A stretch of DNA of 64,000 bases, from positions 1,568,001-1,632,000 of the forward strand of contig OZ241917.1 in the NCBI GenBank assembly GCA_965203805.1. The letters are read 5' to 3'. This DNA is from Candidatus Latescibacterota bacterium (GTDB taxonomy: Bacteria > Latescibacterota > UBA2968 > GCA-2709665). The notes under the pieces are model-generated. The model ran no database searches, was not told the DNA's origin, and was given only the letters and a program-made list of their open reading frames with translations. Shown in pieces: positions 2,874 to 64,000 of this stretch (the first letter of the stretch is position 1; every line of letters begins with the position of its first letter). The translations under genes were made by a program, and so were the position numbers.

Positions 2874-3365
2874 TCAGCCTGCGAGACGAGGAAGCACGTT
2901 TTCCGCCTTCCCTGGCACGAATAAGTCTTCCGCGTGGAGGAACTCCGGTCGATCCGGAGACACCGAAACGACTTGCATTCCAGCGTCTCGAGCGTAACTG
3001 ATTAATCCATGTTCATCTCTTCCGAGCCCGACAGCCAGAACGACCCTGGCTTCCCCAAGCCACACCCATCCCCTCGCGCCTGGCTTGAAGTCGTCGGATT
3101 TCTTCAAGTGGACGTTCACAGACCCCGCCCTCTCGTGGAGCTTATCTCCATTGCCTGTAATAATGTGCCGGACGCGCCCTCTCTCCTCGAGGTCCGCCAG
3201 AGCCCGGTGCGCATCATTGGGTTCCGCCTGGATGAATGCAGCTTGAAATCTCGCAAGAATCCTTGCGAGTTCTCGAGGCCTTTCGATCATGATATCCGCC
3301 ACGGGACCGGGAAACGGTTCGTGCAGCGGGAAGTGCTGGTTAACGCCTTCGACGCGTCCGAACAA
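2874..3365 (-). pseudogene. N-terminally truncated Sir2/sirtuin-like protein
   Basis: AEPNDAHRAL..IITGNGDKLHERAGS present; N-terminal GAGIS motif absent. Confidence 0.6.
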
Positions 3366-3398
3366 CGCCGTTGACCGCTGCGCGCGGCGTGACCAAGT

Positions 3399-4211
3399 CT
3401 AGCCGAGATGTTTTTCCAGCCATTCGATGGCAAAGTCCGCCAGATTCCTCGCGTCGAACAGATAGGAGTCTGCGGCGCCAACCCGCCCCTCGGCATGGCG
3501 TCCCTGTGCCATATACTCTTTCGAAATGGACTGGAAATAATCTCCGTCGAGCCGGTCAGCGATTCCGTTGGATGTATCATACTGTTCGAACTCGATCCAT
3601 TCGCACCTGCCATTGCGCAGGATCGGCCATCGATAGCGCTCGGTTTTCTTGTTCGGCACGTCAGCAATATGCTCCGCGTGGTGAAGAATAGTCAGGCTAT
3701 CGAAGAGCGGCCCCAGCAGAAGAATCTTACCCCCAACGTCGCACAATTTCTCAAGAGGGGAACCCGCGCCATAGCCGAACTGCAACGGGTGGTCTGCCGT
3801 TATGCATTCCGCCTTTGCCCCGACTGCCGCAACTCGCGCCTCCGGATGGTCGCTGCAATGCGCCCCGGGCCATGTGCGCAGGTATTCGGTAAGGACGCTC
3901 CATCGGCGATTGGCTCGAGTCCGATACGGATCAAACGGTGGGCACTCTGCAAGATAGGCTTTCTGCAAGCCCTCCGGCCAATCGTCTATTTCGTTCAATG
4001 GCTCCTCACACTTGATGTACATCATCAAGGCCCCCGTTGAACCGAGCACTTCCAGCACTGCCCGAAGCACCATATCAGGCCCGCCGACGATCCAGCCGAC
4101 TGCCTTAACGGAAGCATGCAGCATCACCGTGTCACCTGAGGCAATCCCCAGTTTCGACAAATCAGATACCATTCTGCTTCGTGTGATTGCAGGTAGACCC
4201 GTTTTGACCAT
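3399..4211 (-). CDS. Aminoglycoside 3-N-acetyltransferase family (AAC(3)/YokD)
   Basis: LGIASGDTVMLHASVKAVGWIVGG, SDHPEA, YGAGSPL, TILHHAE motifs. Confidence 0.9.
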   Translation of the reverse strand: MVKTGLPAITRSRMVSDLSKLGIASGDTVMLHASVKAVGWIVGGPDMVLRAVLEVLGSTGALMMYIKCEEPLNEIDDWPEGLQKAYLAECPPFDPYRTRANRRWSVLTEYLRTWPGAHCSDHPEARVAAVGAKAECITADHPLQFGYGAGSPLEKLCDVGGKILLLGPLFDSLTILHHAEHIADVPNKKTERYRWPILRNGRCEWIEFEQYDTSNGIADRLDGDYFQSISKEYMAQGRHAEGRVGAADSYLFDARNLADFAIEWLEKHLG

Positions 4212-4359
4212 GCTGATTGTGTCCTGTGTCGGGGAAGACCTTGCTCTGAAGTTAACGGTGCGATCCTCCGAATCGAGAACCGATTGCGAGAGGGCAACGA
4301 TTCGCCGAACCGGACGTGAAGGTGTTAACAGCAGTAAAGTACCGACAAAGCTCCCCGGC

Positions 4360-5118
4360 CTACGACGATACCGTCCCGGCAATGAAGTCCCGAAGTTCAT
4401 CGAGGGTGAGGGCCCGTTTGGCTTTCCTGTGGATCATTCGGTGGCAATTACTACAGACGACCGCCATGTCTCGGCACGGATCGACTTCAAGTCCTTCATC
4501 AGGTGCCGCACTCAGCTCTTGCATGTGATGTACCTCCGCGAAATCACGCCCCCATTTGCCGTAAACATCCTCAAAGGCAAAACCACACACTTGGCACTTG
4601 TATCCATGAATTCGCAGCGCAGCAGACCGGAGTCGGGGGCTTCGTTCACGTCTTCGCGACACGACAGCTTTGGTATTCCCCTCAATGCCCACCGTTACCT
4701 TCTCGCAATCCGCATCGGACTCGGCCTGAAGATCGCTCAGCACGGACGACGGAATGGGTGTGACGTCCACAAGGTGGCGTACCGCTTCCCAGACCTCAGC
4801 GTCCGTACGCGCTTTCCACTGTTTCAGCACGCGAGCATCTCGTTTTGGAAGAGCCTTCGGTTGACCGCCGACCCGCCAGCCGCGACGTCCGGAGTCTAAG
4901 TGACTATCGAACTGATCACGCGAAGCCTTAAGGCTGTTGTGGAAGGACCGGAGACTTCGTCCGTCTCCAAGTGCGTCGAAGAACGACGCGTAGGCCACTG
5001 CCCAAGAGTCGGTTTCCATTTCCGCAGGAGGGAGCGGTTTTCCCGCGTCCACTTTTCGACCGCAGCGGGAGAGGAATAAAGCTGAGAGGATGAATTCTTC
5101 ACTTCGCTCGATTGACAT
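4360..5118 (-). CDS. HNH endonuclease (McrA-like C-terminus)
   Basis: ERSPRLR..CQVCGF..EVHH..CSNCHRMIH. Confidence 0.88.
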   Translation of the reverse strand: MSIERSEEFILSALFLSRCGRKVDAGKPLPPAEMETDSWAVAYASFFDALGDGRSLRSFHNSLKASRDQFDSHLDSGRRGWRVGGQPKALPKRDARVLKQWKARTDAEVWEAVRHLVDVTPIPSSVLSDLQAESDADCEKVTVGIEGNTKAVVSRRRERSPRLRSAALRIHGYKCQVCGFAFEDVYGKWGRDFAEVHHMQELSAAPDEGLEVDPCRDMAVVCSNCHRMIHRKAKRALTLDELRDFIAGTVSS

Positions 5119-6229: not shown

Positions 6230-6306
6230 GATACTGTCCTTTCACTTTCGATAATTTGTCAAACAAAGAGGAATCTCTTGGCCGCTTGCACAATTCCTTG
6301 AATGCT

Positions 6307-6373
6307 CGCTGACGCAGCCTCTTCGAACTTGGTGCAGGTCTTGGTTGCGTCGGATGGACAACCCAAGTTCGCA
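6307..6373 (-). repeat. attC-like site
   Basis: cgaacttgg...ccaagttcg palindrome between genes. Confidence 0.55.
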
Positions 6374-6407
6374 AGCAGATTGTAAGAAGGTCAGACGTCC
6401 CTATTAA

Positions 6408-7649
6408 CTATCGTGGAAACACCAATATTGCATCGCACCGACGGCGCTCCTTGCGCACGCCACCCCGGTGAATATCCGAGTAACTGTTCACCACCTCTCC
6501 CCGAACCACCATCGTACTGGATCCCCCTCCGTCCAGGTTATAGGCGTTGTGGGCCCCGAGGTCTGCAAGGAGATCCGTGAGTTCGGGAAGGGTCATCCCC
6601 ATAGCCAGACTCGGCTGACGACCATCCGCGACGATCAGCCAAAGCGTGTTCTTGTCTTTCGACATGCCGATCGCCGTCCTTGGATGTCTTCCATCATAGA
6701 ACCAGGGCTCAAAGGATTCGCTGCCGTAATCAGTAAACCGCTGACCGTTTCGAATCAGCAGTGTTCCAGCGCTCGTATAGCTGCAGTCTTCCAATGGAAG
6801 GGGGCTCTCCGGATTCTCGCGGGAGGTCAGCCGATAGATGATCTTTGTCTTTGAACCCAACCGGGCGTGCTGCTTTAACCAGTCGGCGTACTTGCCAGAC
6901 CCGGAAAGGATGTATCCGTTTGAGGGGATAAGGTTTGATCCCGCATTCACCTGGATGGCTGAAACCGTGTCCTCCCGTACGATTATCTCGACGCCATTCC
7001 GGTCGGTAAGAGTACTTCGGTTCCATTCAGGTGTATAGAGGATGAGGTCATTCTTATCGAGTTCCTCCTTTTCCTTACCATCTTTATCCCATCCACGGAC
7101 TTCGTTTCGTCTCCGGTTGATCCCGGTCACCTCGCTCTCTTCCCTCGCATCAATTGACGCCGTTATTTTTAGCAGAGGTTCCGCAACGATCATGGTCTGT
7201 CTGTCGTCCCTCGTGCAGATTCCAACGCTCCTGCGACCGGGCGTTCGTGGTTCGCTCAGGATCTTCCCATCCAGAACAAAGAATTCGCTTGGATCGCCGT
7301 GATAGATGTTCCATGCGTTGTTTGAAAAGGAGTATCCCGCATTTACGGCGACAAGAGCGTCGTATCTCCTTGCCATATCGCTTGTCGCCTCCTGCCCGAC
7401 GATCTGATTCATCGCCATGACCATCTTCAATCGGTACTTCCGCAGGTCTATTTCCGCGACGTGAATGTTTTGGGGAAGCCCCTCGCTGGTCGAGTCTGCG
7501 GAGATATGTGTCCGAACCAATCCAGAAGCGACCTCGGTCTCAATCTCCTCCACGCTGGTATTCAAAGGTGGATTCTCGTTCGCGCAGATTGTGAACCCGC
7601 TCAACAACAGTGCTGCCAACAACAGCTGGATGCGAATTCGCCCGTTCAT
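6408..7649 (-). CDS. Secreted phosphodiester glycosidase (NAGPA/DUF2233) family protein
   Basis: Signal peptide; VNAGY, HPRTAIG, VADGRQ, NLDGGGSS. Confidence 0.9.
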   Translation of the reverse strand: MNGRIRIQLLLAALLLSGFTICANENPPLNTSVEEIETEVASGLVRTHISADSTSEGLPQNIHVAEIDLRKYRLKMVMAMNQIVGQEATSDMARRYDALVAVNAGYSFSNNAWNIYHGDPSEFFVLDGKILSEPRTPGRRSVGICTRDDRQTMIVAEPLLKITASIDAREESEVTGINRRRNEVRGWDKDGKEKEELDKNDLILYTPEWNRSTLTDRNGVEIIVREDTVSAIQVNAGSNLIPSNGYILSGSGKYADWLKQHARLGSKTKIIYRLTSRENPESPLPLEDCSYTSAGTLLIRNGQRFTDYGSESFEPWFYDGRHPRTAIGMSKDKNTLWLIVADGRQPSLAMGMTLPELTDLLADLGAHNAYNLDGGGSSTMVVRGEVVNSYSDIHRGGVRKERRRCDAILVFPR

Positions 7650-8366: not shown

Positions 8367-8457
8367 AGTTCAACCCGATTATCGTGTGTATAGAATACCT
8401 GAGCCCACCAACTATCGAAATATCCAAAGCCGAGTGGATTGCCATTGCGCCGGAGTT

Positions 8458-8548
8458 GTTTAACGTTACGCCGGTTTCCAAACCTGCGAATATGGGTTGC
8501 CGAGGGCCAGGCGCCGGTGGGCGCGTAGCACGAATTGCCGCGTGGCAG
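8458..8548 (-). repeat. attC-like site (degenerate)
   Basis: gtttaacgttacgccggtttccaaacc...gggttgcc closely resembles the 46579 site. Confidence 0.55.
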
Positions 8549-9540: not shown

Positions 9541-9668
9541 TTCGAGTGCCCTTTGAAACTTCCGCCAATGGCGCATTACGTTTGGCCGCGCCCGAATCGA
9601 GACGTGGTGACGCGCAGGCGTCACGGGGCTGAAGCCGGGAACGAGCGTGTCTGCTGAGGTCAGGGTCC

Positions 9669-10445: not shown

Positions 10446-10497
10446 TGGTGACCGGTCTGAAGCAATAATGCGGCTTGTGGGACAAGGCTCGTGTTGC

Positions 10498-10575
10498 GTA
10501 TCAGGTTCCCACCATTCGCGAACCTGCCGGAGGGTTGCGCAGGTGGGTCGTCGCAGGCTAAGGGGGCTTTGGGCA
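10498..10575 (-). repeat. attC-like site (degenerate)
   Basis: gttcccaccattcgcgaacctgccg matches the family motif. Confidence 0.45.
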
Positions 10576-10649
10576 AGCTCAGGACTGGTTCCGCGCCGTA
10601 TCCTAAATGCACATACTATTCGACCATGCGAATCTCACGATCCGAATGG

Positions 10650-14587: not shown

Positions 14588-14608
14588 GATTCAATTGACC
14601 TGCTTTGT

Positions 14609-14708
14609 GCCGAACGTATCGCCGTGTCCGAACCGCGCAGCGGTTTGCGAAGGACCGAATGTCCTGCCGACTGAGAGATACGATTTTCGAGGCTGCGAGA
14701 GGTTCGCG
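14609..14708 (-). repeat. attC-like site
   Basis: gccgaacgtatcgccgtgtccgaaccgcgcagc...gctgcgagaggttcgcg. Confidence 0.65.
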
Positions 14709-16630: not shown

Positions 16631-16813
16631 TCCAGATCTCCACAGTGTCTCTACGCTTCTGTTGTGTTCCCGCTTTTCTGCATGCTCAGTTCTAACGCCG
16701 ACCGGTCCCATAACATTCTCGGCACCCCCGAAGCCCGAGGGTGCCGTGTCAATCGGTGAGGGGATTTGTCAGTTTAGCCAAGGGTCAGGAACCAGACATT
16801 GCCCTTGGTTTTT

Positions 16814-17119
16814 TCATTCATCTCCTGCCAGTGCTTCTGACCAACGCCTGGCCATTGCCCTCAATTCTTCCTCATGGTCGGGCCAATCGTGAAGCGTGGC
16901 TGGATCAAAGTCAGCACCATTGGGCCAGACGAGTGTATGGACCTCGGAATCGATACGCACCTGATTAAAGAGCACTTCATCCATCAGAGGTCCGAACAAC
17001 TCGCCCTCAAGAACTGGACGAAAATCGATTTCCTGTATCGTTTTATCGTTGAATCTGACATTGATCCGATGAGGCCCAACGATCTCAAATTCAATGACTT
17101 CATAGATCGAATGACTCAT
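16814..17119 (-). CDS. DUF2442 domain protein (putative antitoxin)
   Basis: VRFND..IDF..F..L.D..F.QV..TLVWPNGADFDP. Confidence 0.88.
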   Translation of the reverse strand: MSHSIYEVIEFEIVGPHRINVRFNDKTIQEIDFRPVLEGELFGPLMDEVLFNQVRIDSEVHTLVWPNGADFDPATLHDWPDHEEELRAMARRWSEALAGDE

Positions 17120-17130
17120 TCAATTCTCCC

Positions 17131-17400
17131 TTAATGTAGCGGATCGATCGGCAAGGGCGGATGCCCGGATTGGAGCCGATCCCAATCTACAAGTAGCTCA
17201 TCCTGGTGTAACTCCGCCCAGGCTTCGACGAATCGTCGTTGCCGGCGTGGCAAAGTCCCTGCGATCAATTCAACAGTATCCACAGCGTAAACGGCCACTT
17301 CATCTTGATAGTAGGCGTGAAAATGAGGCCGATGGTGCTGTGTTCTCGGTTCGGCAAACATGCGAATGATGATTCCGAAAAACCGAGAAATCTCAGGCAC
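17131..17400 (-). CDS. DUF4160 domain protein (putative toxin)
   Basis: MPEISRFFGIIIRM..HRPHFHAYY..WAELHQDEL..W. Confidence 0.9.
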   Translation of the reverse strand: MPEISRFFGIIIRMFAEPRTQHHRPHFHAYYQDEVAVYAVDTVELIAGTLPRRQRRFVEAWAELHQDELLVDWDRLQSGHPPLPIDPLH

Positions 17401-17445
17401 TTTTCTTCCTTGCGATATGGATTCTATCGATATAATCCCACAGGA

Positions 17446-17474
17446 AGTATACCGAATTCTGCGAGGGTAGGCAA
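17446..17474 (-). promoter_or_regulatory. Sigma70-type promoter of the DUF4160/DUF2442 pair
   Basis: TTGCCT-17 bp-TATACT on the minus strand. Confidence 0.7.
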
Positions 17475-17690
17475 AACCCGAATTTGGAGAGGTGGGCGTC
17501 TGCTGTTGCACATGCGAGCTTGACCAATATGCCCGTCAAATCTCCATGTTGGCGAGCGTCCTCAAAGACTGCGAAACCGCGAAGAAAGTTAGGCGAGGGG
17601 CTGTTGCCTCAAGCCGCGGACACGGTGCTACCAGTGTACGATGCTTCGGTTGGGCGCACGGTATGCATCGGGTCGGCTGATTGTCGCCTC

Positions 17691-18668: not shown

Positions 18669-18699
18669 TGGCTTTCCGGCTCGGGAAAAGTTCTCCGTA

Positions 18700-18768
18700 C
18701 TTACGCACCCGAGCAGCGGGTTAACCGTAACCCCGCACGGGCCGTGGCCGAGGGCGCTCGTGTCAGGC
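18700..18768 (-). repeat. attC-like site
   Basis: gccgtgg..gctcgtgtcaggc matches the R''/L'' side of the 34940 and 58395 sites. Confidence 0.5.
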
Positions 18769-18798
18769 GTCTGGCTCGGCAAGGGCAGGGTGGTGGCG

Positions 18799-19330
18799 CT
18801 AGAAACGCTCCTTGTCAAGTCGGTCAACAGTCTCGGCAAGGAAATGAAACCCGACCTCTCGAGGATAACTTCCAAGCCAGTCTCCCGTCACAAATTCAAA
18901 CGCCCAATCGTCTGTGTTCAGCACACCCATGCACCCCTCGTGGACTACCGGCTTCTGTGATCGCCGCGCATCGCTGACGACACTTGCGACCTGCACGCAC
19001 ATTGTGTCATACACCCGCCGTGGTGCGACGGGGTGGTGGAAATGGCCAAACACATGAAATGCAGGTTTTCGTTTCTTCAGGAAGCTCAGCATCGCATCAG
19101 GACCCGGCGCCAAGCCTTCGGATTCGGCGCCGACTCCGAATCCTCCTTCGTGGGAGACCAGGACATCGACAGCATCCTCTGAACGAGAATCGAGCCCGCT
19201 GGGATCCCCCGCTTCACAGAATCCAACCCGTACGTCCCGATCGTGATGGACGAATCCGTCGGGTACGTACTCGAAGATACCGTGCGGATCGATAGGCTGT
19301 GGATGTCCAAGTCCTTTTTCATCTAATGTT
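18799..19330 (-). pseudogene. Metallophosphoesterase, C-terminal part (IS-interrupted)
   Basis: VLVSHE, VFGHFH; rejoins 21154-21473 in frame. Confidence 0.85.
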
Positions 19331-21153
19331 GAGTCCCCTCCGAGAAGGGGGTTCAGGAAGATTTCGTGTGTAGGTGTCAGTGTTGTGTATTGAGAGGTCG
19401 CGTTGCGTGGTGAAAGTGCATCGGGTTGCGGCCCATCAACACAGAGGCGGTTTACGAGGTTGCTCGCGTGGTTTTGGGGCAAGGATATGCATAAAAAAGT
19501 CGCATCTTATGCGGGGAGCATCGTGGGTGAGGTGAGGTAATTCTGGATCCGAACGAGATTGACCCATAAGCCACGACAGTGCGCCCACAGCTGATGTGGC
19601 ATCAATCCACGATAGCGAGTTTTGCCGTTTCGGGTGTAATAGCTCAACTGGAAGAGGCTGGCTTCGACGTTATTGCGTCGGTTTCTGATGTGTTCAGGCA
19701 GGGCTTCACTCTGTTTGCGTTTGATGTAGTTGTCGATGGCCTGTTCTTTAAAGTATCGGGGTTTGCCATCCATGATGAGTTTGTATTTCCCCGGTTTGTA
19801 TTCTTGGGCAAGCTGCACGGCTTGGGTATTTCGATCCATGACTTCGACGCCTTCTCTTGTTCGTCGATAAATGAAACGCCCTGGGGTTCCTTGCAGGCCA
19901 CTGTAATAGAATTGCTTGTCGTGTTCGTTTGCGTACTCGGCGTTGGATTGATCATTATAGGCCCCATCCATCGACACGTCTCGAACCTGCCCTACCACGT
20001 GCTGTGTGCGCCCTACGGCCGCTTGCACAAACGCGTTGTCGGGCGCTGTCGCGGATTTGACGTCAATGTCCGTGATCAAATTGAGGCCCTCCTCACCGCA
20101 GGTCTCGGTGAGGTTCACACTGTATCCTTTCACCTTCGCTTCCCCTTTCTTACGAAAGGCCGCATCTTCGTCATCGGGGGACTGCAAGGAGGATGCGGAG
20201 ATCTCATCAGGCGGCTTGGGAAGCACCTGTTTGGAGGAGGATAAAACCGAATACTGGTCTCCAAAAACACGCGCCATCACACCATAGTGATCGCTGTCTT
20301 TCTCGGTATAGATCGCTTGAAGCCTGCTCAATAACACACCGTATTCCTGTAGCTTCTCACCTTTTTCAGCACGGGTGAGACGGTAGACAACCTGATGGGG
20401 CTTCACCTTGAGCATTCCGTCCAGAACCTGCCGGTGTTTTCCTGATAATCGCCGCTTCCGGGCCTCGTCCAACGATCCCCAGAACCGTTGTAAACAACCC
20501 ACCACCAACTGCAACCGACAACATAGCGCAATGTTCGAGCCGATTAACTTACTGTCCATTCGGATTTGCTGACCCAGCACACCAAAGGCGTCGGCCTGCG
20601 TCTTCGTTAAGCTGCTAAAGGTCTCGCCAACCAGATCCCGACCGGTTTTCAGTTGATACGCATACAAGGACTGTTTGAACAGATAATACGTCGACTCCAC
20701 AGGCGCCTCATCAGACAGATTCATCAACCCCAATGCCCGCATCGCCAGGATATTGAACCGACATTGCTCGAACAGTTGTGCATCGCTCCACCCGAAGCCC
20801 TCCTTCAAGACCATCATCGCCGCCAACTGACGAATCGGGGCATTGGGACGGCCTATGTCGGGATCAAACAACACGGAAAACACATCCTCGTCGATCTCTG
20901 ACGTGATGTGCTGGTAAAACAGATTATGCCACGACTTCGGATCATTCAACTGCGCCTGCTTCCGCTGTGTGAAATGCGACTCGAAATTCGAAAACAGATC
21001 CGGTTGACTGCACGACGCACTCGGCTTATACATCTGTCCTCTCCCACGCTCTCTACAATTGTAATTCTCAATACTTCATCCTTGCTGACTTTTCACACTT
21101 CGAATTTAGTACTTTCACCAGCATAAGTAAATGCGACTTTTCGGAGTGGACTC
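19331..21153 (-). mobile_element. Insertion sequence (IS5/IS1182-like), 1823 bp
   Basis: Terminal IRs GAGTCCCCTCCGAGAAG / CTTTTCGGAGTGGACTC; 6-bp target duplication AATGTT at 19325-19330 and 21154-21159. Confidence 0.92.
19507..21033 (-). CDS. DDE transposase
   Basis: GRPNAP..GWSD (DUF772-like), RMDSK, MDGAY, RNNVEAS. Confidence 0.92.
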   Translation of the reverse strand: MYKPSASCSQPDLFSNFESHFTQRKQAQLNDPKSWHNLFYQHITSEIDEDVFSVLFDPDIGRPNAPIRQLAAMMVLKEGFGWSDAQLFEQCRFNILAMRALGLMNLSDEAPVESTYYLFKQSLYAYQLKTGRDLVGETFSSLTKTQADAFGVLGQQIRMDSKLIGSNIALCCRLQLVVGCLQRFWGSLDEARKRRLSGKHRQVLDGMLKVKPHQVVYRLTRAEKGEKLQEYGVLLSRLQAIYTEKDSDHYGVMARVFGDQYSVLSSSKQVLPKPPDEISASSLQSPDDEDAAFRKKGEAKVKGYSVNLTETCGEEGLNLITDIDVKSATAPDNAFVQAAVGRTQHVVGQVRDVSMDGAYNDQSNAEYANEHDKQFYYSGLQGTPGRFIYRRTREGVEVMDRNTQAVQLAQEYKPGKYKLIMDGKPRYFKEQAIDNYIKRKQSEALPEHIRNRRNNVEASLFQLSYYTRNGKTRYRGLMPHQLWAHCRGLWVNLVRIQNYLTSPTMLPA

Positions 21154-21473: not shown

Positions 21474-21498
21474 GGGGTTCTCGTTCCAGCAAGTTTGC

Positions 21499-21563
21499 GC
21501 CCGACGTTCCTGCTGGCTGTGAACCTGCCGAAGCGCAGCGTAGAAAGGTTGGCAAAAAGGTTG
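21499..21563 (-). repeat. attC-like site (degenerate)
   Basis: gcccgacgttcctgctggctgtgaacctgccg family motif. Confidence 0.45.
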
Positions 21564-21566
21564 CCT

Positions 21567-22565
21567 CTAGCCTTCTGCGCCACGCCCGTAGACCGTGCGA
21601 ATCACGTCCTCGATGTCGGGCTCCTGGACGGACACGTCGCGCACCCTGTAGTGGGCCGAAAGCTCCGCGATGAGTGCCGACGCAGACACCTGGCTCCTCG
21701 AAAAGCGGATGCGGACGACGTTGTTCCGACGTTCGAGAATCTCTGCGTGGGGATGCGAGAAGCCACTCAGCGGCTCTCCGGCGCCGGGATCGCACTCGAC
21801 GATAAGGTAACGGTGCGGGGTGATCGAGTCGACGAGCGCCGCCAGTGGTCCGTCTTCGATGATGCGTCCCTGGTTGATGATGATGAGTCGCTCGCAGAGC
21901 TCCTCCACGTCGTCCAGGTCGTGCGTGGTGAGCAGCACGGTGGTGCGCCGGCGCCGGTTGATGTCGCGGATGAATGCCCGGATCGCGGCCTTCACCTCGA
22001 TGTCCATGCCTATCGTGGGCTCGTCGAGAAACAGGATATCCGGCGCGTGCAGCATGGAACCGGCCAACTCCCCGCGCATGCGTTGCCCCAGGGACAACTG
22101 CCGCACCGGTGTGTCGAGGAGGTCCCCGATGCCGAGGACCTCGCAGAGTTCTGCCAGGCTACGCTCGAAGTCGTCGTCGGCAATGCGGTAGATCCGCTTG
22201 AAAAGTTCGTAGGATTCGCCCAGGCGAAGGTCCCAGTTCAGTTGGCTACGCTGACCGAACACGGCGCCGATTCGCTGTACGACCGCCCGCCGTTGCCTCT
22301 GGGGCGACAGGCCGACGACGGAGACGCGCCCGGACGTGGGATACAGGATGCCGGAGAGCATCTTGATCGTCGTTGACTTCCCCGCGCCGTTGGGACCGAT
22401 GAATCCGACCAGCTCGCCCGGCTGAATCGCAAAGCTCACGTCGCGCACCGCGTGCACCTCACGCCGGTCGGGCCGAAACAAGCCCTTCACCGCACCGGCC
22501 AGCCCCTTTTCCTTCCCGGTCACGCGGAAGGTCTTACAAACCCTCTCTAACTCTATATGTGACAT
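21567..22565 (-). CDS. ABC transporter ATP-binding protein
   Basis: GPNGAGKS, LSLGQ, FLDEPT. Confidence 0.95.
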   Translation of the reverse strand: MSHIELERVCKTFRVTGKEKGLAGAVKGLFRPDRREVHAVRDVSFAIQPGELVGFIGPNGAGKSTTIKMLSGILYPTSGRVSVVGLSPQRQRRAVVQRIGAVFGQRSQLNWDLRLGESYELFKRIYRIADDDFERSLAELCEVLGIGDLLDTPVRQLSLGQRMRGELAGSMLHAPDILFLDEPTIGMDIEVKAAIRAFIRDINRRRRTTVLLTTHDLDDVEELCERLIIINQGRIIEDGPLAALVDSITPHRYLIVECDPGAGEPLSGFSHPHAEILERRNNVVRIRFSRSQVSASALIAELSAHYRVRDVSVQEPDIEDVIRTVYGRGAEG

Positions 22566-28764: not shown

Positions 28765-28928
28765 ACAGGTCTCGGATTCACGTTTTGCATACAATCACAA
28801 AGAGGAAGAGGACGTCCTCGCACTATTTCTCGCCAATTATGCGGCGGGTATGCGGTGTTGACTGGAACGCACACTGTGCTTGGAGGCCCATGGCGTAAAC
28901 CCGCTAGCTGGCCGCCGGCTTCACGGCG

Positions 28929-29012
28929 GCCCAATCTTCCCGCCGTACCCGAACTGCCGCAGGCGGTTGACAAGGGTGCGGATGCACCGAGCCGCGCACG
29001 GACGCGTCAGGC
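28929..29012 (-). repeat. attC-like site
   Basis: Minus strand GCCTGAC..CCGTGCGCG...CGGGTACGG..ATTGGGC; TGA of the upstream ORF lies in R''. Confidence 0.7.
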
Positions 29013-30325: not shown

Positions 30326-30670
30326 TCATTGTCGTGCGTCTGGCGCCAAAACACCGGCAAGTGTTTCTGTCGCCCACTGATTGATACTCTTTCCACTTAC
30401 TTCAGCAGCCATCGCGATCGCTGCGTGAACCTCTGGAGGAATGCGCAACATCAGTTTGCCGGAATACGGCTTTTGAGGGGATCTGTTGAGCTTTTCACAG
30501 GTTTCTAGATAGTCGTCAACCGATTCTTCAAAAGCATAACGCAGTTCCTCAACCGATTCGCCGTGAAAGCCTACCACATCATTGATCCCTGCAATGTGAC
30601 CAATGAAGCAGCCATCTTCATCACTATAGTCAATCCGAGCCGCATATCCTCTATGGGTCATCGTGTTCAT
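30326..30670 (-). CDS. hicB: HicB antitoxin
   Basis: GYAARI..FEESVDDYL..YSGKLMLRIPPEVH..SINQW. Confidence 0.93.
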   Translation of the reverse strand: MNTMTHRGYAARIDYSDEDGCFIGHIAGINDVVGFHGESVEELRYAFEESVDDYLETCEKLNRSPQKPYSGKLMLRIPPEVHAAIAMAAEVSGKSINQWATETLAGVLAPDARQ

Positions 30671-30921
30671 GGAGTAACTCCTGCCCGTTGTAGAAAACGT
30701 CTGGCATCACGCACTTGATAGACTCTTGCCTCTCTGTGAGGGTGAGGACGGTGAAAAGTAGCGACGACACCATTGAGCGCAAACCGCACCCGCGAACCTC
30801 TGCCTTCAATTGATTCAGCTCCAATTGCCTTGAATAAAGCTTCAATACGCCTCCACTCCAGTCCCGCAGGAACTGGCGTTTTGAAGATATCAGCCAGAGT
30901 ATCCCGGTGCCGTTTGTTCAC
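30667..30921 (-). CDS. hicA: HicA toxin
   Basis: EGRGSRVRF..FHRPHP..YQV; ATGA overlap with hicB. Confidence 0.93.
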   Translation of the reverse strand: MNKRHRDTLADIFKTPVPAGLEWRRIEALFKAIGAESIEGRGSRVRFALNGVVATFHRPHPHREARVYQVRDARRFLQRAGVTP

Positions 30922-31678: not shown

Positions 31679-31729
31679 CGATCCCCCTGCAACACCTGTT
31701 TGTCCTCTTTGTCTGACGTTCGGCGAACA

Positions 31730-31789
31730 TACCAACGGCAAGTCGGGTGGGGGCCCGGACGGCCCGAGCCGCAAGTGCTGCCGTTACCC
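31730..31789 (-). repeat. attC-like site
   Basis: aacggca...tgccgtt palindrome with inner cggg/cccg stem. Confidence 0.45.
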
Positions 31790-33361: not shown

Positions 33362-33391
33362 CGTTAGTAACTCCCTTGAATGAGTCTATTT

Positions 33392-33480
33392 CCAAAACCG
33401 TCCCACGGGTTGCGAAACTGCCGTAGGTAAGTCACGTCGGAGGCGCGAACCCGCCGGAGCCGCAGTGTGGCGTGTTAGCA
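33392..33480 (-). repeat. attC-like site
   Basis: ccaaaac-14 nt-cgaaactgccgtagg...gccgcagtgtggcgtgttagca. Confidence 0.65.
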
Positions 33481-34909: not shown

Positions 34910-34939
34910 ACAGTTCGCGTTCTGCGCACAAACGACGTC

Positions 34940-34991
34940 CGCTAACGGTCCGAAGGCCGGATGGCCGGAGTCGTGGTTGCTCGTGTTATGC
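34940..34991 (-). repeat. attC-like site (internally shortened)
   Basis: R'' GCATAAC contains the TAA stop of the 34986 gene; R' GTTAGCG. Confidence 0.75.
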
Positions 34992-42207: not shown

Positions 42208-42259
42208 CGTCAGATTCTCCCAATCCTGATTTGATTGCCCTCTTGTTTGGCCTCATGTC

Positions 42260-42349
42260 TCGCTACGATATGCCAGTTTGCGAACCGCCAAGGTGGCTGC
42301 CGACAGCCTGATCGGCAACGGCGCCGCAGCGCAAGACGGGCTGTTAGCA
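42260..42349 (-). repeat. attC-like site
   Basis: Minus: TGCTAAC AGCCC GTCTTGCG...GTTGCCGA..TCGGCAGC...CGCAAAC..GTAGC; L''/L' pair with one extrahelical base. Confidence 0.75.
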
Positions 42350-44969: not shown

Positions 44970-45003
44970 TGCCTCAAGTTATGTTGATTCTCTCTTCCCA
45001 CTT

Positions 45004-45107
45004 TATAAATCGTTCATCCGTTACCGAACCCCGGGAGCACAGCGAAGTGGGTTGCCGGAGCCCAAGCCGCCACCGGCCCCGCAGCGCAACACCGTGCTTT
45101 TAGACGG
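45004..45107 (-). repeat. attC-like site
   Basis: R'' CCGTCTAA contains the stop of the 45100 gene and complements TTAGACGG at the cassette start (46577-46584). Confidence 0.7.
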
Positions 45108-46548: not shown

Positions 46549-46578
46549 GGGTTCACCTCATACCTATTGGGCGATGCC

Positions 46579-46669
46579 GTCTAACGTTTCGCCGGTTTGC
46601 GAACCGTGAAGTTGGTTGCCCAAGGCAAAGGCGGCGGTAGCCGTCGCAGCACAGACCGTGCTGTTGCAT
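46579..46669 (-). repeat. attC-like site
   Basis: Minus: ATGCAAC AGCAC GGTCTGTG...CGCAAACC GGCGAAAC GTTAGAC. Confidence 0.75.
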
Positions 46670-47305: not shown

Positions 47306-47453
47306 ACAGTTCGCATTCTGCGCACAAACGGCGTCCGCTAACGCGCGAGCATTGCGGACGCAGCACCTCGTCAATCAGTGTATGAGATTCCAGGCACCCA
47401 GTCAACGAATCTCGCAGGGCCGTTTGGGTGAAGTGACGAAAAAGCTGAGAATC

Positions 47454-49268
47454 TTACAGATCTTCATTCGGCATCTGTGGATGTTGTGCAGGAAAGAGCA
47501 CATCCATTAGGGCTGCCGCGTCACCACTAAGCAACATGCCCGACCGTTCGGCAATTTCATCGGGTGCTTCTTTTCCAATGATGATTTGTGCGAACTCATG
47601 ACCACTTTCAATGGTGTGATCTGCTTTGCCGCCAGGCTGCACAGAGACTTCACTGTTGTCGATGGATAGAATTGCAGACTGATCCGGGATGGAAATCCGA
47701 AATGTGCCCATGAAATCTCTGAGATTCGATTTCCGTAAACGTCGGGATAATTCAGGCGCGATCTTACTCAGCGTCGTCTCAAGGTTGATGATGCGAATCT
47801 GGTTCCCCGTACGACCATTGTGGTTTTTTACTTGATAAAGATGAGGCAACTGCCGCACACGCTGTGCAAGCGCGCTGTGCCAGGGAAGCCGGACAAATGC
47901 CGCCCGGGGTGCGTCGTATTGCCGAGCAAGCTGTCCGACAACCCGCAAAACCATTCCTGGATCACCGGCTGAATCCGTATGACGCAATTCGCGCCCATTG
48001 TGTTCTTCCTTTTTATTCGGGCCATCGTAGAGATAACCCACCGTACGGCCGGTTTTGTCTTTGAAAATGTACGCTGTCCAGGGATCGTCGTCTTCCGGCG
48101 GGCATTTGCCTTTCCGATACGTCGGGCGGACGGTCGTGCCGGTCAATCCGTCGTGCCATCGATTGTGAAGTTCGGCCAGGTCTGTGCGCCCGTGAATCAC
48201 GTTGACATGTACTTCCTCCAGCTCTATTTCCGGTGCTGCTTCGGGCAGGTGCTCGGTGTCGATATAATACGTCTCCTCATCGGGCCAGGCAAGCACGTAG
48301 CCGAAACTCGCAAAGTGATCAAGCGGTTCGGTACGCGTACACGACATATCGTAGCCATGGGCATACAAGGCGTCCAGCGCCGCCTGAAGTGTTTCCGTAT
48401 AGATCCGCTCATCCCGAAAATCGGGATGTACGGTCGGCAGATTGATGCCCCCGGTCCGGACCGTTGCGCTGCCGATGCGCATCGACAGATCGTAAATGCC
48501 TGCGTGTGCGACGACCTCACCATCCATCGTTCCGACCCGCGACGTCCGCCAGTCGTAGTGACTGTGTGCGATGCGTCCGGCGCGACACTGACGGCCGATG
48601 GCGTTCCAGCGCTTGTCCAGCAACTTATAGATACCTTCGCTATGATTCGTTTTATCAGGCGCCAGGACTTCTCGCACTCGGTCAATGAACCGATTGTCCC
48701 GCGAAGGCCGGTTCACATACATATCGTCCTTCACCATATCGAATAGCCTTTCCTTGAGCCGTTTCCGCGCCGACCGCAGCCGGTTCTTCACGACGTCGAC
48801 TGACACGTCCAGAAACATGGCCACTTCCCGCTGTGAATAATCCGAGATGTAGAACAAAGACACGGCCTGACGCTCGGTTTCGGGCAACGTGTTGATTGCT
48901 TTTCGCATAAAATCCCGCATCTCGTTCTCTTCTGTTGTCCGATCCGGATGCTTGTCTTCCGATGCGATCTCGACAAGCCGCTCCATCGATACGATCTCGA
49001 CCTTCTTTCCCCGACGCGTCATCCGATCGCAATATTTGAACACGATCTTGCGCAACAGGGCAGGAAAAGCGAAGACATCGTACACGCGCTCCAGAATCAC
49101 CCAGGCCTCTGTAAACGCCTCCTGCGCCGCGTCCTGCGCCAGGTGAAAATCCCTCAACAACGCGAATCCGTATCCCACGGCGAGATCCTGGAAGTGCGCC
49201 ACAATCTGCTCGTATGCCTTCAGATCTCCTTGCTTTGCGCGCTCGAATATCGGCTTCAGTGTCTCCAT
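47454..49268 (-). CDS. ECF sigma factor fused to Eis-like GNAT and SCP2-like domains
   Basis: AQDAAQEAF (sigma2), YSQREVA..VKNRLRSAR (sigma4), GGINLPTVHPDFR (GNAT). Confidence 0.88.
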   Translation of the reverse strand: METLKPIFERAKQGDLKAYEQIVAHFQDLAVGYGFALLRDFHLAQDAAQEAFTEAWVILERVYDVFAFPALLRKIVFKYCDRMTRRGKKVEIVSMERLVEIASEDKHPDRTTEENEMRDFMRKAINTLPETERQAVSLFYISDYSQREVAMFLDVSVDVVKNRLRSARKRLKERLFDMVKDDMYVNRPSRDNRFIDRVREVLAPDKTNHSEGIYKLLDKRWNAIGRQCRAGRIAHSHYDWRTSRVGTMDGEVVAHAGIYDLSMRIGSATVRTGGINLPTVHPDFRDERIYTETLQAALDALYAHGYDMSCTRTEPLDHFASFGYVLAWPDEETYYIDTEHLPEAAPEIELEEVHVNVIHGRTDLAELHNRWHDGLTGTTVRPTYRKGKCPPEDDDPWTAYIFKDKTGRTVGYLYDGPNKKEEHNGRELRHTDSAGDPGMVLRVVGQLARQYDAPRAAFVRLPWHSALAQRVRQLPHLYQVKNHNGRTGNQIRIINLETTLSKIAPELSRRLRKSNLRDFMGTFRISIPDQSAILSIDNSEVSVQPGGKADHTIESGHEFAQIIIGKEAPDEIAERSGMLLSGDAAALMDVLFPAQHPQMPNEDL

Positions 49269-49562: not shown

Positions 49563-50333
49563 TCATACGGCAAGCGAATCGTAATTCTCATTAAGCCACG
49601 TGTTTTCTTCTTCCAGTTGCGCAAGGTCCCCACGCTGGTAGAAGATCGACCAGGGGAGGAGTCCCTGCCTGCCCAGAGTCTCGGTCCTCCGGTACTCTTC
49701 CAGTTGCAGGTCGTTCAAGGTGTCCAGAATCGCGTTGGCGTCCGTGCCAAACGTGTCAGAAACGACTGCCAACCTGGACCTGAAATCAGGCTCTTCGGAA
49801 AATCCGGCCTCTCTCCAGTGGTCTTCACCTCGGAGAGGCACCGCGTACCAGGCAAACTGGCTGACATCGCAGAGAGGATCACCCGGTTCAGCGAAGTCCC
49901 AGTCGATTACTCCTTTAAGGGACCGCCCTTCCCAGACAGTATTCCAGGGTCCAAGATCCCCGTGTCGGATGGTCATCCCCGGTCGCCAGGTCACATTGGG
50001 AACAACCCATTCAGCATCCTCTGGCGGCTCGAAATCCCTCACTGCATCGTGATATCCGGACAGGAATCGTGCGACCTCAGCCAGGCCCTCTTCCTCAAGC
50101 ATCACGTCCGGCCATGGTCGCCGGGCAACCTCTCCAGGTACAAACGAAAGTACCTCGCGCCCGAGTTCGTCGAATCCGAGGACACGAGGTACTCCTGTAA
50201 AGCCAACCGACTCCAGGTAGCGCAGCAAGGAATGGACGGCCGGAGTCCACCGATGGACAGGTCGGCGCACGGTGTCCCCAATCCGAACAACGGGATTGAC
50301 ACAACCCTGGTCGGATTCGCCCTCTTGCATCAT
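49563..50333 (-). CDS. APH-family phosphotransferase (paralog of 41437-42207)
   Basis: Same length, and colinear with the 41437 copy. Confidence 0.88.
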   Translation of the reverse strand: MMQEGESDQGCVNPVVRIGDTVRRPVHRWTPAVHSLLRYLESVGFTGVPRVLGFDELGREVLSFVPGEVARRPWPDVMLEEEGLAEVARFLSGYHDAVRDFEPPEDAEWVVPNVTWRPGMTIRHGDLGPWNTVWEGRSLKGVIDWDFAEPGDPLCDVSQFAWYAVPLRGEDHWREAGFSEEPDFRSRLAVVSDTFGTDANAILDTLNDLQLEEYRRTETLGRQGLLPWSIFYQRGDLAQLEEENTWLNENYDSLAV

Positions 50334-58329: not shown

Positions 58330-58394
58330 CAGATGCCTCCTTGCCAGCGATGGGAATGGCGCGGAACGTCGTGAATCGAGCGAATTCCCCTGTC

Positions 58395-58481
58395 AGATGA
58401 CGTTCCCTGCACCCGCGAACCTGCCGCAGGCCGGCTGGGCGAAGGGCTGAATGGCCGGAACCGTGGGTGCTCGTATTACCG
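58395..58481 (-). repeat. attC-like site
   Basis: Minus: CGGTAAT ACGA GCACCCACG...CGCGGGTGC AGGGAAC GTCATCT. Confidence 0.65.
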
Positions 58482-59321: not shown

Positions 59322-59324
59322 ACC

Positions 59325-61672: not shown

Positions 61673-61763
61673 TTCACATCTCCAGGATGGGACAAGGCGC
61701 TGTCGAAGCAGGCCATCGTTCGCGCCCGCGGGAAACCCTCCCGCGACGAGTCGAGGTTCCCGC

Positions 61764-63077
61764 TCATATTCGGCCCCCTTCGGGTACCTCGCGTCCGCCG
61801 TCCCAGACGCCCGGCCCTTCGGTCGCCGACGGCCAGTACCCGTCGGCGTCTTCATCCCATTGATTTCCGCACATCGACGAGATGATGGTCCATTCCGCCG
61901 CCCCGAAATCCGGCTCGGGATGGTACAGGAAGCGCTTCAACCCCGCCTCCCGCGAAGCATTCAGGATGCCGTAGAGATCGCGCGCCTGCATCGGGTCGCC
62001 GCCGTGGGGACGGCGCCCGGTGGACACCCAGGCGATCACCTTGTCGGGATCACCTACGGCCGCCAGGGCCCGCCGGGTCTCGTTGTAGACCACCCTGGAG
62101 AAGAATTCGTCGGGGAAACCCATCTCCATGTCCATCAGCGAGTTGACGCCGGGCAGCTCGATGCCCAACAGCGCCTTCACGACGGCGAAACACTCCGCCT
62201 CGCTCAGGGACGGGTTCCACTTTCGCAACCGTCGTACCCAGCGGGATATGGTTCCGTACATGCCGTCCATACCGCGGTGCCAATAATAGTGTTTCGGAAA
62301 GATATAGTCGAAGTACTCCGCCATCTGACAGTAATTCTGTCCGGTGAGCGATGACCACGCCGGGGCCCGCGGGATACCGCCCAGCTCCACCTTGCGATCG
62401 ACGGCGTCGACCTGTTGCCGCATGTACTGCCAGTCGAAGCGAGAGCGCTCCTGCCGCTTGCGCAGCCAGTAGAGCACGTCCTCGTTGACGTCGAACAGGA
62501 GCATTGCCCCCAGCATCCCGCCGTCGGCGTGGTACCGCACCATTTCCGGCGTCAGATTGTGCAAACGCTCCCGGAAGTGGGTGATGCCGCGCTGGATTCG
62601 ATCCAACTCGGCGCCGACCTGGGCGAAGCGGGCCTCCTCGCCCGGACGGATCTCCAGGAGCTGGCCCCCATGGTGGAATGCCAGCTCGTAGTGGTTTTCG
62701 CCCGGACCGTCGACAATGACGCCGTGCACCTGTGGAAAGGCGTTCATCTGGTCCTGCACGTGAGCGGTCGGGCCGCCCCCGGCGAATATCAGTATTCGCC
62801 AGCCTCGTTCCGCGGCGTTGTCCAGCATTGCGTGCAGCTTCTTCTCTTTTAAGACGTCGCGCGGACGCTGCTCCGGGACTTCCGCCCCCAGGGCCTCGTA
62901 CACCTTCGGGTCGGGCGCCCACGCCGGAATGGTGGTGCCACCGTCCTGGAGGAACGTCATGCGGCCGACGGCCAGACCGCGCACGCCGCCATCCTCCCAG
63001 GCGTCGAACCGCTCCTCGAACCCGTCGAGCCAGTGTTCGAACGGGCTGTCACTGCAGGTGAATACCCAGAGTTTCAT
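61764..63077 (-). CDS. Hypothetical protein (paralog of 51625-53001)
   Basis: 437-aa ORF with strong RBS AAGGAGG. Confidence 0.8.
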   Translation of the reverse strand: MKLWVFTCSDSPFEHWLDGFEERFDAWEDGGVRGLAVGRMTFLQDGGTTIPAWAPDPKVYEALGAEVPEQRPRDVLKEKKLHAMLDNAAERGWRILIFAGGGPTAHVQDQMNAFPQVHGVIVDGPGENHYELAFHHGGQLLEIRPGEEARFAQVGAELDRIQRGITHFRERLHNLTPEMVRYHADGGMLGAMLLFDVNEDVLYWLRKRQERSRFDWQYMRQQVDAVDRKVELGGIPRAPAWSSLTGQNYCQMAEYFDYIFPKHYYWHRGMDGMYGTISRWVRRLRKWNPSLSEAECFAVVKALLGIELPGVNSLMDMEMGFPDEFFSRVVYNETRRALAAVGDPDKVIAWVSTGRRPHGGDPMQARDLYGILNASREAGLKRFLYHPEPDFGAAEWTIISSMCGNQWDEDADGYWPSATEGPGVWDGGREVPEGGRI

Positions 63078-63240
63078 TTTCCCCTCCTTTGGGGTGGCAG
63101 CGGCGATTTCCGTTCACGGCCTCGTCGTGCACGAATCGCGAATGCGGTTGCGCGAAGGGCGCATGTCCGGAGCCGGGCACGGGCATGTCATCTGACTTGC
63201 CGGCCTCGGACTCTGTGGGGCTTCCCAGGCGCCAGGATAC

Positions 63241-64000
63241 CTAAACTTTCGTCTCCACGAGTGCGCCAACATCGTCGTCACCAAACAGCCATCCGGTGTC
63301 ATCGTTTCCAAAGCGCTCGTTGATCTCGTGCGCGTTGGGAAGCAATGCGTAGGTTTCGGGCGTATTTATCTTCGACTTGCGAGGGTCAAGGTGCCAGTCA
63401 AGCTTGTCAACATCAGGCAACTCTAGCCCCAGAAAGTTGAAGATACCTTTGGCAACGACGTGACTCTTCTTGATGTCTCCAGTGTACAGCTCCTCATAGG
63501 ACACCTTCAAGGTACTGCCTCGTGGACGCTGCTCTATCACGTTACTGTAATAGTCTCTGAGTTCCGTCGCGTATTCGAGACCGTCCGCGATCTTCTTCAA
63601 GGAAACTGGCTTCAGATTCCGGTAGATTCGCCTGGTTTTCTCGTTCAAGTCTGAAATCTGCCAGACCTTCGTTTGTTCGGCTATGCATCCGGAGACTTCG
63701 GCTCGCAGCAGATTAGCCCTTTGAAGGAAAAGGACCGTGGCGTCAGGAGAAAGCAACAGATGGGTGTATAACTTTTTTGGAAGTTGGTAGCTGAGGATCT
63801 TTATCCCGTTGTACCTGGCGAAGAGATCTTCAAGGGCTTTCTCAAGCGACGGAACGTCCTCCATGAAATCCACGTAGTTCCTCTCGCCGGGATTTTCCCT
63901 CGCATATCCATGCCAAAAGGGCTCGAGAGCGAAATTCAAGCGAGGATGTGTCTGAAGAACGCGATACAGCGTCGTACTGCCGCTTCGGCCGTGCGCAAAG
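63241..64000 (-). CDS. Stf0-like sulfotransferase (5' end outside window)
   Basis: Frame is open to the window edge: FAHGRSGSTTL..EPF; LQRANLL, VSYEEL. Confidence 0.8.
   Translation of the reverse strand, partial: FAHGRSGSTTLYRVLQTHPRLNFALEPFWHGYARENPGERNYVDFMEDVPSLEKALEDLFARYNGIKILSYQLPKKLYTHLLLSPDATVLFLQRANLLRAEVSGCIAEQTKVWQISDLNEKTRRIYRNLKPVSLKKIADGLEYATELRDYYSNVIEQRPRGSTLKVSYEELYTGDIKKSHVVAKGIFNFLGLELPDVDKLDWHLDPRKSKINTPETYALLPNAHEINERFGNDDTGWLFGDDDVGALVETKV

Follow-up and report, generated by a model that had tools for sequence, protein, structure and literature searches.

What kind of element strings unrelated genes along one strand of a bacterial chromosome, parts them by related palindromes, and does so in a genome without an integron integrase? 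The question is raised by a stretch of 64,000 nucleotides (hereafter the window, C1:1,568,001–1,632,000; positions above 64,000 continue its numbering to the right) in the single-contig 5.87-Mb genome of a Candidatus Latescibacterota bacterium. A preliminary description, made from the sequence alone, had proposed a super-integron or a cluster of attC sites lacking an integron integrase (CALIN), with an attC-like repeat family of its own. We conclude that the window is probably the older half of a ~116-kb cassette array without a recombinase, belonging to an integron-like lineage whose members in related genomes carry an atypical integrase. This reading builds on the observed location, orientation, structure and covariation of the sites, and on exact cassette junctions between genomes.

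A site family confined to one locus and one strand

A profile made from 11 seed spacers picked by eye was run with nhmmer against the whole genome at E ≤ 10 and returned 45 matches. All 26 matches with E < 0.2, including 15 that were not seeds, fell on the minus strand within C1:1,574,296–1,670,518, and every one of the 12 matches lying far from the locus had E ≥ 0.34. A covariance model (R1) returned 39 matches at E ≤ 10 when run on 164 kb around the window, and 38 of these were minus-strand; genome-wide at E ≤ 1 it gave 28 matches, 27 of which lay in 1,567,627–1,678,966, all minus, in a scan that scored 150 of 7207 first-look candidates and for which the exhaustive nhmmer run is the better control. 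A second covariance model (R2), built from 69 sites of eight genomes (three from the window) and run on the window with filters off, found 20 matches at E ≤ 5; the 15 with E < 0.5 were all on the minus strand, and only three of these belonged to the training set. The 60 kb to the right of the window added 28 R2 matches, again all minus, while plus-strand matches in the structure-model scans of the locus amounted to one for R1 (E 0.57) and three for R2 (E 1.3–2.2).

Combining R2 with four sites seen by nhmmer only, we list 47 sites for the array, all on the minus strand, from window position 4249 to 119,881 (C1:1,572,249–1,687,881; ~116 kb, ~56 kb past the right end of the window); 35 of them have R2 E < 0.01. 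The array may also extend a few kb to the left of the window. Within the window lie 19 sites, 10 with E < 0.01, in agreement with the estimate of about 20 related palindromic spacers given in the preliminary description, and the seven positions it named were all recovered: 46579, 42260, 33392, 28929 and 58395 by R2, 14609 in part, and 8458 by nhmmer only. The window sites are:

4249..4329, minus: attC-like site between an HNH gene and the AAC(3)-like gene (R2 E 2.2e-4; R1 E 6.3e-5)
6303..6432, minus: weak attC-like site, seed (nhmmer E 0.12 only; missed by R1 and R2)
8457..8547, minus: attC-like site, named earlier as 8458, non-seed (nhmmer E 6.3e-4; missed by R1 and R2)
9572..9654, minus: weak attC-like site (R2 E 0.14; R1 E 0.099)
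10497..10620, minus: attC-like site with long variable centre, seed (nhmmer E 1e-4; R2 E 3)
14607..14697, minus: attC-like site, named earlier as 14609, seed (nhmmer E 2.3e-5; R2 partial, E 0.18)
16707..16753, minus: short attC-like site of 47 nt (R2 E 7.4e-6)
17550..17632, minus: attC-like site (R2 E 6.6e-5)
18682..18767, minus: attC-like site (R2 E 0.042)
21498..21641, minus: degenerate attC-like site, seed (nhmmer E 1.6e-4; R2 E 0.42)
28928..29011, minus: attC-like site, named earlier as 28929, in training set (R2 E 9.2e-10)
31710..31788, minus: attC-like site (R2 E 1.3e-4)
33391..33479, minus: attC-like site, named earlier as 33392 (R2 E 3.1e-4)
34911..34990, minus: attC-like site (R2 E 4.3e-4)
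42259..42348, minus: attC-like site, named earlier as 42260, degenerate R' core, seed (R2 E 0.014; nhmmer E 6.7e-5)
45003..45104, minus: attC-like site, degenerate R' core, seed (nhmmer E 8.5e-4)
46578..46668, minus: attC-like site, named earlier as 46579, intact GTTA core, outside training set (R2 E 1.4e-7)
58394..58480, minus: attC-like site, named earlier as 58395, in training set (R2 E 3.7e-13)
63110..63192, minus: attC-like site, in training set (R2 E 2.7e-14)

Restriction to one locus and one strand differs from repetitive extragenic palindromic (REP) sequences and bacterial interspersed mosaic elements, which occur in many copies genome-wide in both orientations, and Rfam contained no family matching the repeats at E ≤ 1. 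A crude regular expression (GTT, 9–13 nt, CGAAC) proved uninformative, with 687 plus-strand and 646 minus-strand matches across the genome.

The genes follow the same orientation. Among 73 open reading frames (ORFs) of the window compared with Pfam at E ≤ 1e-4, 47 of the 67 on the minus strand had a match and none of the six long ORFs on the plus strand did, four of the latter overlapping Pfam-matched minus-strand ORFs. From ~2,900 rightward all family-supported genes of the window lie on the minus strand, as expected from the earlier remark that the plus strand holds no credible gene.

Site architecture and fold

The best-kept copies are five sites outside the window, at 99–103 kb, scoring 85–90 bits with R2. 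They begin with a box ending in TAAC, followed by a long arm, two inner hairpins, a return arm, an unpaired G(G/A)GAAC and the GTTA box; the long stem has a single-base bulge on its 5' arm and 5–6 nt remain unpaired before R'. The elements of a classical attC site (R'' and R' boxes, paired arms, an unpaired spacer and an extrahelical base) are all present, and the attC architecture put forward in the preliminary description, with R'' ending in TAAC, R' starting with GTTA and an imperfect palindrome between them, describes the family well. The conserved distance of 14 nt between the R' core and CGAAC likewise held in 13 of the 17 array sites with exact GTTCG and GTT motifs (19 nt from start to start, hence 14 nt between motifs). 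Hardly any variation is seen in the four pairs of the TAAC/GTTA box among the 69 sites from eight genomes. Many GTT cores of the window sites are mutated, and these distal sites are decaying.

Evidence for the fold comes from covariation. In a 10-site MAFFT alignment, with the structure taken as the minimum-energy fold of one site plus the TAAC/GTTA pairs, 89.8% of the cells can pair, compared with 32–39% when the partners are slid along the alignment; none of 500 shuffles reached the observed value, and double-sided changes occur in 13 of the 26 pairs. Across the 69 sites the figures are 94.8% against 29–42%, with compensatory changes in 21 of 25 pairs, in an alignment that was fitted to the model; in either alignment, related copies inflate the covariation counts. 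RNAalifold predicted no pairs from a first alignment of 21 sites (MAFFT) because the variable centres were misaligned, and the structure was therefore taken from the minimum-energy fold of one site. As single strands, three promoter-proximal sites outside the window have folding energies far more favourable than those of their shuffles (z −3.8 to −4.5; 0 of 200 shuffles as good). It is covariation, and not folding energy, that supports a predicted three-way-junction fold for the sites.

Exact cassette junctions in related genomes

Of 41 genomes of the order, 29 have the repeat family, and within the genus it is present in 13 of the 14 other genomes. It is lineage-specific, as first suggested. 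The distal block of the window is syntenic, at 79–88% identity, in all five congeners searched, which indicates that the array is old and fixed at this locus.

Two relatives show how the array begins. In G011 the flank with a peptidoglycan-binding (PG-binding) gene and a family-B polymerase (PolB) gene leads into a tyrosine recombinase, after which come a palindrome, a GTTA and the first cassette with its site. That cassette begins at the G of GTTA and has two matches in our genome, one at window 117,134 and one at 79,424 (80% over 814 nt), the second being the R' of a site. In G013 the sequence after the recombinase and the palindrome is 97.8% identical over 2751 nt to our genome, and the match begins exactly at the G of the R' GTTA, in the site at window 91,410–91,506. 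To the left of both junctions the sequences are unrelated. The same cassette is thus preceded by an attI-like site in a congener and by an attC-like site here, with the join inside GTTA, which, as far as junctions in aligned sequences can tell, is the signature of integron-type insertion.

The cassette shared with G013 encodes a GHL6-type glycosyl hydrolase of 757 amino acids (window 88,667–91,417, in locus L006; 97.8% to the G013 array-head query in blastn). The same cassette is matched outside the array, at C1:3,517,553–3,519,999 (97.3% to the G013 query), and in G013 a DDE transposase is inserted at the spot matching it. A further segment of this locus (L006:14000–19600) is partly present in runs labelled as sponge, coral and marine metagenomes (10 coded studies), where depth peaks at the repeat sites and many contigs continue into unlike sequence at the site borders, as would be seen if these sites also bordered different cassettes elsewhere.

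An orphan array in this genome

At the head of the array we found two more cassettes, one for a NUDIX protein and one for a permease of the FtsX type, and each has a degenerate site behind it. The preliminary description had expected intI and attI beyond position 64,000; the array does continue there, to ~119,900, but between this head and the PG-binding/PolB genes there is no recombinase and no attI. That flank is syntenic with G011, where the recombinase sits.

Nor was an IntI-type tyrosine recombinase, as predicted earlier, detected elsewhere in the genome. The integron integrase model TIGR02249 reached at best 93 bits against a cut-off of 265, and tblastn with the integrases of the relatives revealed no remnant. 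Only three proteins passed the PF00589 cut-off, two of them Xer-like and the third encoded ~205 kb away; one of the two Xer-like genes reaches the XerC cut-off and the other is common to every relative. An IntI with its specific insertion, by which classical integrons are recognised, is thus missing from this genome, which has no integron integrase, and the array is an orphan. The proposal of a super-integron or CALIN stands as regards a sedentary, CALIN-like array, but not as regards an integrase of its own. One apparent lead was discarded: the N-terminal 53 residues of the G013 recombinase ORF match window 31,535–31,693, which reflects a cassette gene included in an over-long ORF and not an integrase remnant.

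The array-head recombinase of relatives

The defining enzyme of integrons is an integrase with an extra helix that reads the extrahelical bases of the folded attC site, a signature that survey tools use, and the IntI-specific insertion is held to be essential for reading folded attC sites. The recombinase at the array head of the relatives, composed of PF13495 and PF00589 domains, is not a canonical IntI. It scores 195–241 with TIGR02249 (cut-off 265), in a two-piece alignment that skips positions 179–234, and 210–219 with the XerA/integron-integrase model (cut-off 220). Among solved structures, both sequence and fold place it nearest to the Vibrio integron integrase PDB 2a3v (E 1.3e-15 in the structural comparison), with XerA next, and the alignment to 2a3v again comes in two pieces, skipping chain residues 177–244. 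Where both motifs fitted the search patterns, the spacing from GKGxKDR to HxLRH was 100–101 residues in canonical IntI (7 of 15 rows) and 58–62 residues in the recombinase family (11 of 19 rows) and in IS91-associated integrases (5 of 7); a gap at the IntI insertion is also visible in alignment A4. Judged from these alignments, the array-head recombinase lacks the ~41-residue IntI-specific insertion. Intact family members, 340–395 amino acids in length, have an extra N-terminal beta-rich domain, for which a full-length fold search returned no identity.

The recombinase or its fragments lie directly upstream of the first site, and co-oriented with it, in G011/G013, G008, G003, G015, G038 and G017; the fragments of G008, G003 and G015 have retained this place and orientation. 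In each of the 14 loci examined, a GTTA core lies no more than ~250 nt past the stop codon of the recombinase; in most it comes after a short lineage-specific palindrome (by eye). From its position, this GTTA core is a candidate attI. Homologues at 55–65% identity carry the source labels Dehalococcoidia, Clostridia and Peptococcaceae.

Two other kinds of integrase occur among the relatives. Array-head recombinases are 43–50% identical to integrases linked to IS91-family elements and ~35% identical to canonical IntI, and a quick tree recovers a clade of canonical IntI (support 98) and one of IS91-linked integrases (support 100). The Y2/HUH transposase that accompanies IS91-family integrases was found neither in the window nor beside the array-head recombinases of G011, G013, G016, G038 and G017. 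G020 encodes six copies of a 283-amino-acid integrase, each paired with a Y2/IS91 transposase; units of integrase and Y2/Zn-IS91 lie co-oriented at the head of or inside arrays at L102:11431–13479, L103:6020–8068 and L104:10743–12791. The sites contain GTTC/GAAC, the IS91 target, and IS91-family elements may home to the repeats.

Canonical IntI was not found in any of the 15 genomes of the genus, this one included. In G017 a canonical intI is convergent with two sites and lies 19–23 kb from them, the upstream neighbour of those sites being a recombinase without the insertion. As a separate observation, the canonical intI of G017 is directly followed by an IS91-linked integrase twice, in L010 (C1:2,493,564–2,495,712 of that genome) and at C1:2,158,606–2,160,397, which suggests that the pair moves or duplicates together.

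A metagenome survey shows a link between the insertion-less recombinase family and these arrays. The 80 metagenome loci encoding the family (39–55% identical to the query; 541 kb) yielded 22 R2 matches at E ≤ 1, spread over 15 loci. Every match is on the same strand as the recombinase, and 21 are downstream of the gene, even though more upstream (287,685 nt) than downstream sequence (166,748 nt) was scanned. A match was present in 11 of the 24 loci with at least 2 kb of downstream sequence, and the first site usually lay 0.6–1.5 kb after the recombinase gene. A control of 722 kb around canonical IntI genes and other recombinases (loci from a contig search with an alignment headed by a canonical IntI; mostly canonical integron integrases, with more distant recombinases at 29–36% identity) gave two R2 matches, one of them beside a recombinase without the insertion.

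Proposed mechanism and alternative explanations

In the mechanism that we favour, each cassette would consist of one or a few minus-strand genes followed by a recombination site of 80–145 nt, built of a TAAC-ending box, a long imperfect stem with two inner hairpins (the three-way junction), a fixed GGTTCG motif 14 nt before GTTA, and the GTTA-starting box. Cassettes would have been inserted singly, by site-specific recombination in the GTTA core, into an attI-like site that stood at the head of the array beside the conserved PG-binding/PolB flank. With insertion at the head, new cassettes would lie at high coordinates, where the sites at window 99–103 kb are preserved, and old ones in the window, where GTT cores are mutated. 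The recombinase and attI would then have been lost in this genome, leaving an immobile store of accessory genes equivalent to a CALIN. That the array-head recombinase catalyses cassette recombination, that single-stranded folded sites are its substrate, and the order of events in the history of the array are what we infer from these patterns. Whether the arrays make up a separate and widespread integron-like lineage, with a recombinase that lacks the insertion but has the N-terminal domain, transcription in the cassette direction, a palindrome-plus-GTTA attI and three-way-junction sites, we regard as an even question.

Several observations weigh against the array being a cassette array of this kind. 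The bias towards minus-strand genes goes on beyond the array, so that co-orientation alone is weak evidence. Mean spacing is ~2.5 kb per detected site, larger than in classical cassettes, and the window has site-free gaps of 7–12 kb (21.6–28.9, 35–42.3 and 46.7–58.4 kb), which implies that many sites were lost or escaped detection, or that non-cassette DNA is interspersed. Folding energy does not support the copies in the window: of five window sites taken as single strands, four were no more stable than their shuffles (z −0.09 to +0.52), and one reached z −2.57. Same-genus copies of the recombinase are 5'-truncated or fragments, and none is intact beside a long array in the genus. IS91-linked integrases also sit in arrays of the repeat family, the array-head family forms a grade in the quick tree that is not cleanly apart from them, and canonical IntI occurs in two of the 41 relatives. 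Cassette mobility is read from junctions and not from observed recombination, and the two contig joints from other samples that end inside sites (short sides of 28 and 38 nt), found in a search of contigs only, could be assembly artefacts at repeats.

The most serious alternative, which we consider unlikely, is that this is a classical integron array (a CALIN) built by a canonical IntI that was later lost, the insertion-less recombinase being incidental, a relative of IS91 integrases or a passenger. Canonical IntI does occur nearby in the phylogeny (464 bits; a single genome within the family and another within the order), the excerpted text of PMC4889954 documents both intI loss and large CALINs with as many as 114 attC sites, the array-head recombinases cannot be told apart from IS91-linked integrases in the tree (43–50% identity), and three examined copies among the six IS91-paired integrases of G020 are co-oriented at or inside arrays. 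Yet R2 found 22 matches in the 541 kb around the insertion-less family but two in the 722 kb of the control with canonical IntI and other recombinases, and where both enzymes are present, in G017, it is the insertion-less one that adjoins the sites, the canonical intI being convergent and 19–23 kb distant. Congeners differ by cassettes inserted exactly at the GTTA beside the insertion-less recombinase, although none of the 15 genomes of the genus has a canonical IntI, and behind the stop codon of that recombinase a GTTA-containing site is present at every one of the 14 loci examined, with no need of an IS91 transposase.

It is extremely improbable that the repeats are ordinary intergenic palindromes (REP-like sequences, terminators or small-RNA genes) in a strand-biased region. 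They are GC-rich palindromes downstream of genes, the strand bias does reach beyond the array, and the window copies fold no better than shuffled sequence; but they are confined to one locus and one strand, whereas a true dispersed palindrome of this genome (window 487–561) has 13 copies on both strands, their TAAC/GTTA terminal boxes are nearly invariant, the G of GTTA is the exact point at which cassette homology between genomes sets in, and no Rfam family matches them. Continued mobilisation of the array in trans, by a host XerC/XerD-type enzyme or that of a mobile element, would account for the very well preserved sites at window 99–103 kb (five sites, R2 85–90 bits) and for the two contig joints whose ends both fall within sites; two Xer-type recombinases and one further tyrosine recombinase are retained in the genome, and mobilisation in trans of CALIN cassettes is proposed in the portion of PMC4889954 drawn on here. 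We nevertheless think it very improbable, given that mutations have hit many GTT cores in the window, as one would expect if recombination were not under selection, that the distal block is stable across five congeners, and that the contig joints have short sides and come from contigs only. The reading as the older half of an orphan array, from a lineage with an atypical integrase in relatives, is the one retained below.

Gene content of the window

The cassette genes encode unrelated accessory functions: GNAT proteins, AAC(3)-like acetyltransferases, methyltransferases, NUDIX and HAD proteins, metallophosphoesterases, Kelch and ankyrin proteins, five APH-family kinases and one ANT(2'')-like protein, together with a HicAB pair, a DUF4160/DUF2442 pair and one transposase. 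Several genes have paralogous copies at 85–97% identity (D1–D5), and the GC content per 2-kb step ranges from 0.49 to 0.65. This gene content is typical of chromosomal integron cassettes; together with the one-strand site map, the Pfam scan upholds the earlier view of a co-oriented, sedentary array of unrelated accessory cassettes with toxin-antitoxin pairs. The genes referred to individually are:

3399..4400, minus: AAC(3)-like acetyltransferase cassette (PF02522)
16814..17511, minus: DUF4160/DUF2442 gene pair (PF13711 and PF10387)
17691–18875, 34301–34909, 41437–42207, 42373–43326 and 49563–50333, minus: APH-family genes (PF01636)
19507..21033, minus: insertion-sequence transposase inside the array (PF05598, DUF772 transposase domain)
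30326..30921, minus: HicA/HicB toxin-antitoxin cassette (PF07927 and PF05534)
46697–47374, minus: ANT(2'')-like gene (PF10706)

The DUF4160/DUF2442 pair at 16814..17511 we take to be toxin-antitoxin-like, and the AAC(3)-like cassette is one among the many small-molecule-modifying enzymes of the window. Two cassettes carry a region of an extracytoplasmic function (ECF)-type sigma factor, fused to a GNAT domain at window 47454–49268 and to long ankyrin repeats at L007:9827–12106. A cassette protein of 522 amino acids (L007:6993–8561; window 110,993–112,561, minus strand) has a reverse-transcriptase-like motif by eye and may be a defence-type reverse transcriptase. Left of the array, a 75-nt palindromic repeat that is unrelated to the attC-like family occurs at window 487–561 and 1758–1832 (95% identity); its 13 genome copies are dispersed on both strands, with short matches in congeners, and it looks like a small family of the REP type or of miniature inverted-repeat transposable elements.

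Comparison with known systems

An array with exact GTTA junctions is tied here to a recombinase without the integron signature in several genomes and 15 metagenome contigs. This makes it a concrete, testable candidate for a second system of cassette capture and for the origin of some orphan arrays; if this is true, some orphan CALINs would be arrays of the second system, and cassettes could be recombined without the insertion. The groups bearing homologues (Dehalococcoidia, Clostridia and Peptococcaceae) include ones reported without complete integrons. For this genome alone the meaning is more ordinary, a large and decaying cassette store rich in enzymes that modify small molecules. Our full-text literature search, of a limited collection of papers, returned no paper tying an insertion-less recombinase to attC-type arrays, and others may exist.

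The term CALIN denotes attC sites that occur in a cluster without an integron integrase, and examples with as many as 114 sites are known (Cury et al., 2016; PMC4889954); according to the excerpts of that survey used here, 95% of CALINs have no intI pseudogene nearby and no complete integrons are reported from Firmicutes. The present array resembles a CALIN in its attC-type sites (35 at R2 E < 0.01) with no integrase nearby or in the genome. CALINs are, however, defined by the attC model of IntegronFinder, whereas our sites were found with models of their own, and the missing enzyme was seemingly not a canonical IntI. The integrase of the relatives is transcribed in the cassette direction, as in the inverted-integrase integrons of the Treponema group (described in the same excerpts of PMC4889954), but those are recognised by the IntI-specific profile, and the array-head family lacks that region.

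The integrases of IS91-family elements are like the array-head enzymes in identity (43–50%), in domain composition (PF13495 and PF00589), in the lack of the insertion and in being found in arrays, namely those of G020 and G017. They differ in being ~283 amino acids long, without the N-terminal domain, in occurring in multiple copies and in always being followed by a Y2/IS91 transposase. Xer and XerA share with the array-head enzyme a simple tyrosine-recombinase fold of similar length without the insertion, XerA being its second-best structural and profile match, but Xer acts on a single dif site per replicon and not on arrays of hairpin-forming sites that flank cassettes, and the host XerC is a separate gene product, ~34% identical to the array-head recombinase.

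A further parallel is with sedentary chromosomal integrons such as the Vibrio cholerae superintegron and its attC sites, the V. cholerae repeats (VCR). Unlike it, the genome studied here has no integrase, the detected sites are more widely spaced and a conserved sequence extends past the boxes (GGTTCG 14 nt before GTTA), and the integrase of the relatives is co-oriented with the cassettes, without the insertion and with an extra N-terminal domain. Like it, our array runs co-oriented over more than 100 kb at one locus, has homogeneous lineage-specific sites with AAC/GTT ends and a branched, variable centre, and carries toxin-antitoxin and paralogous cassettes, insertion taking place, by our reading of the junctions, in the GTT core at the integrase-proximal end.

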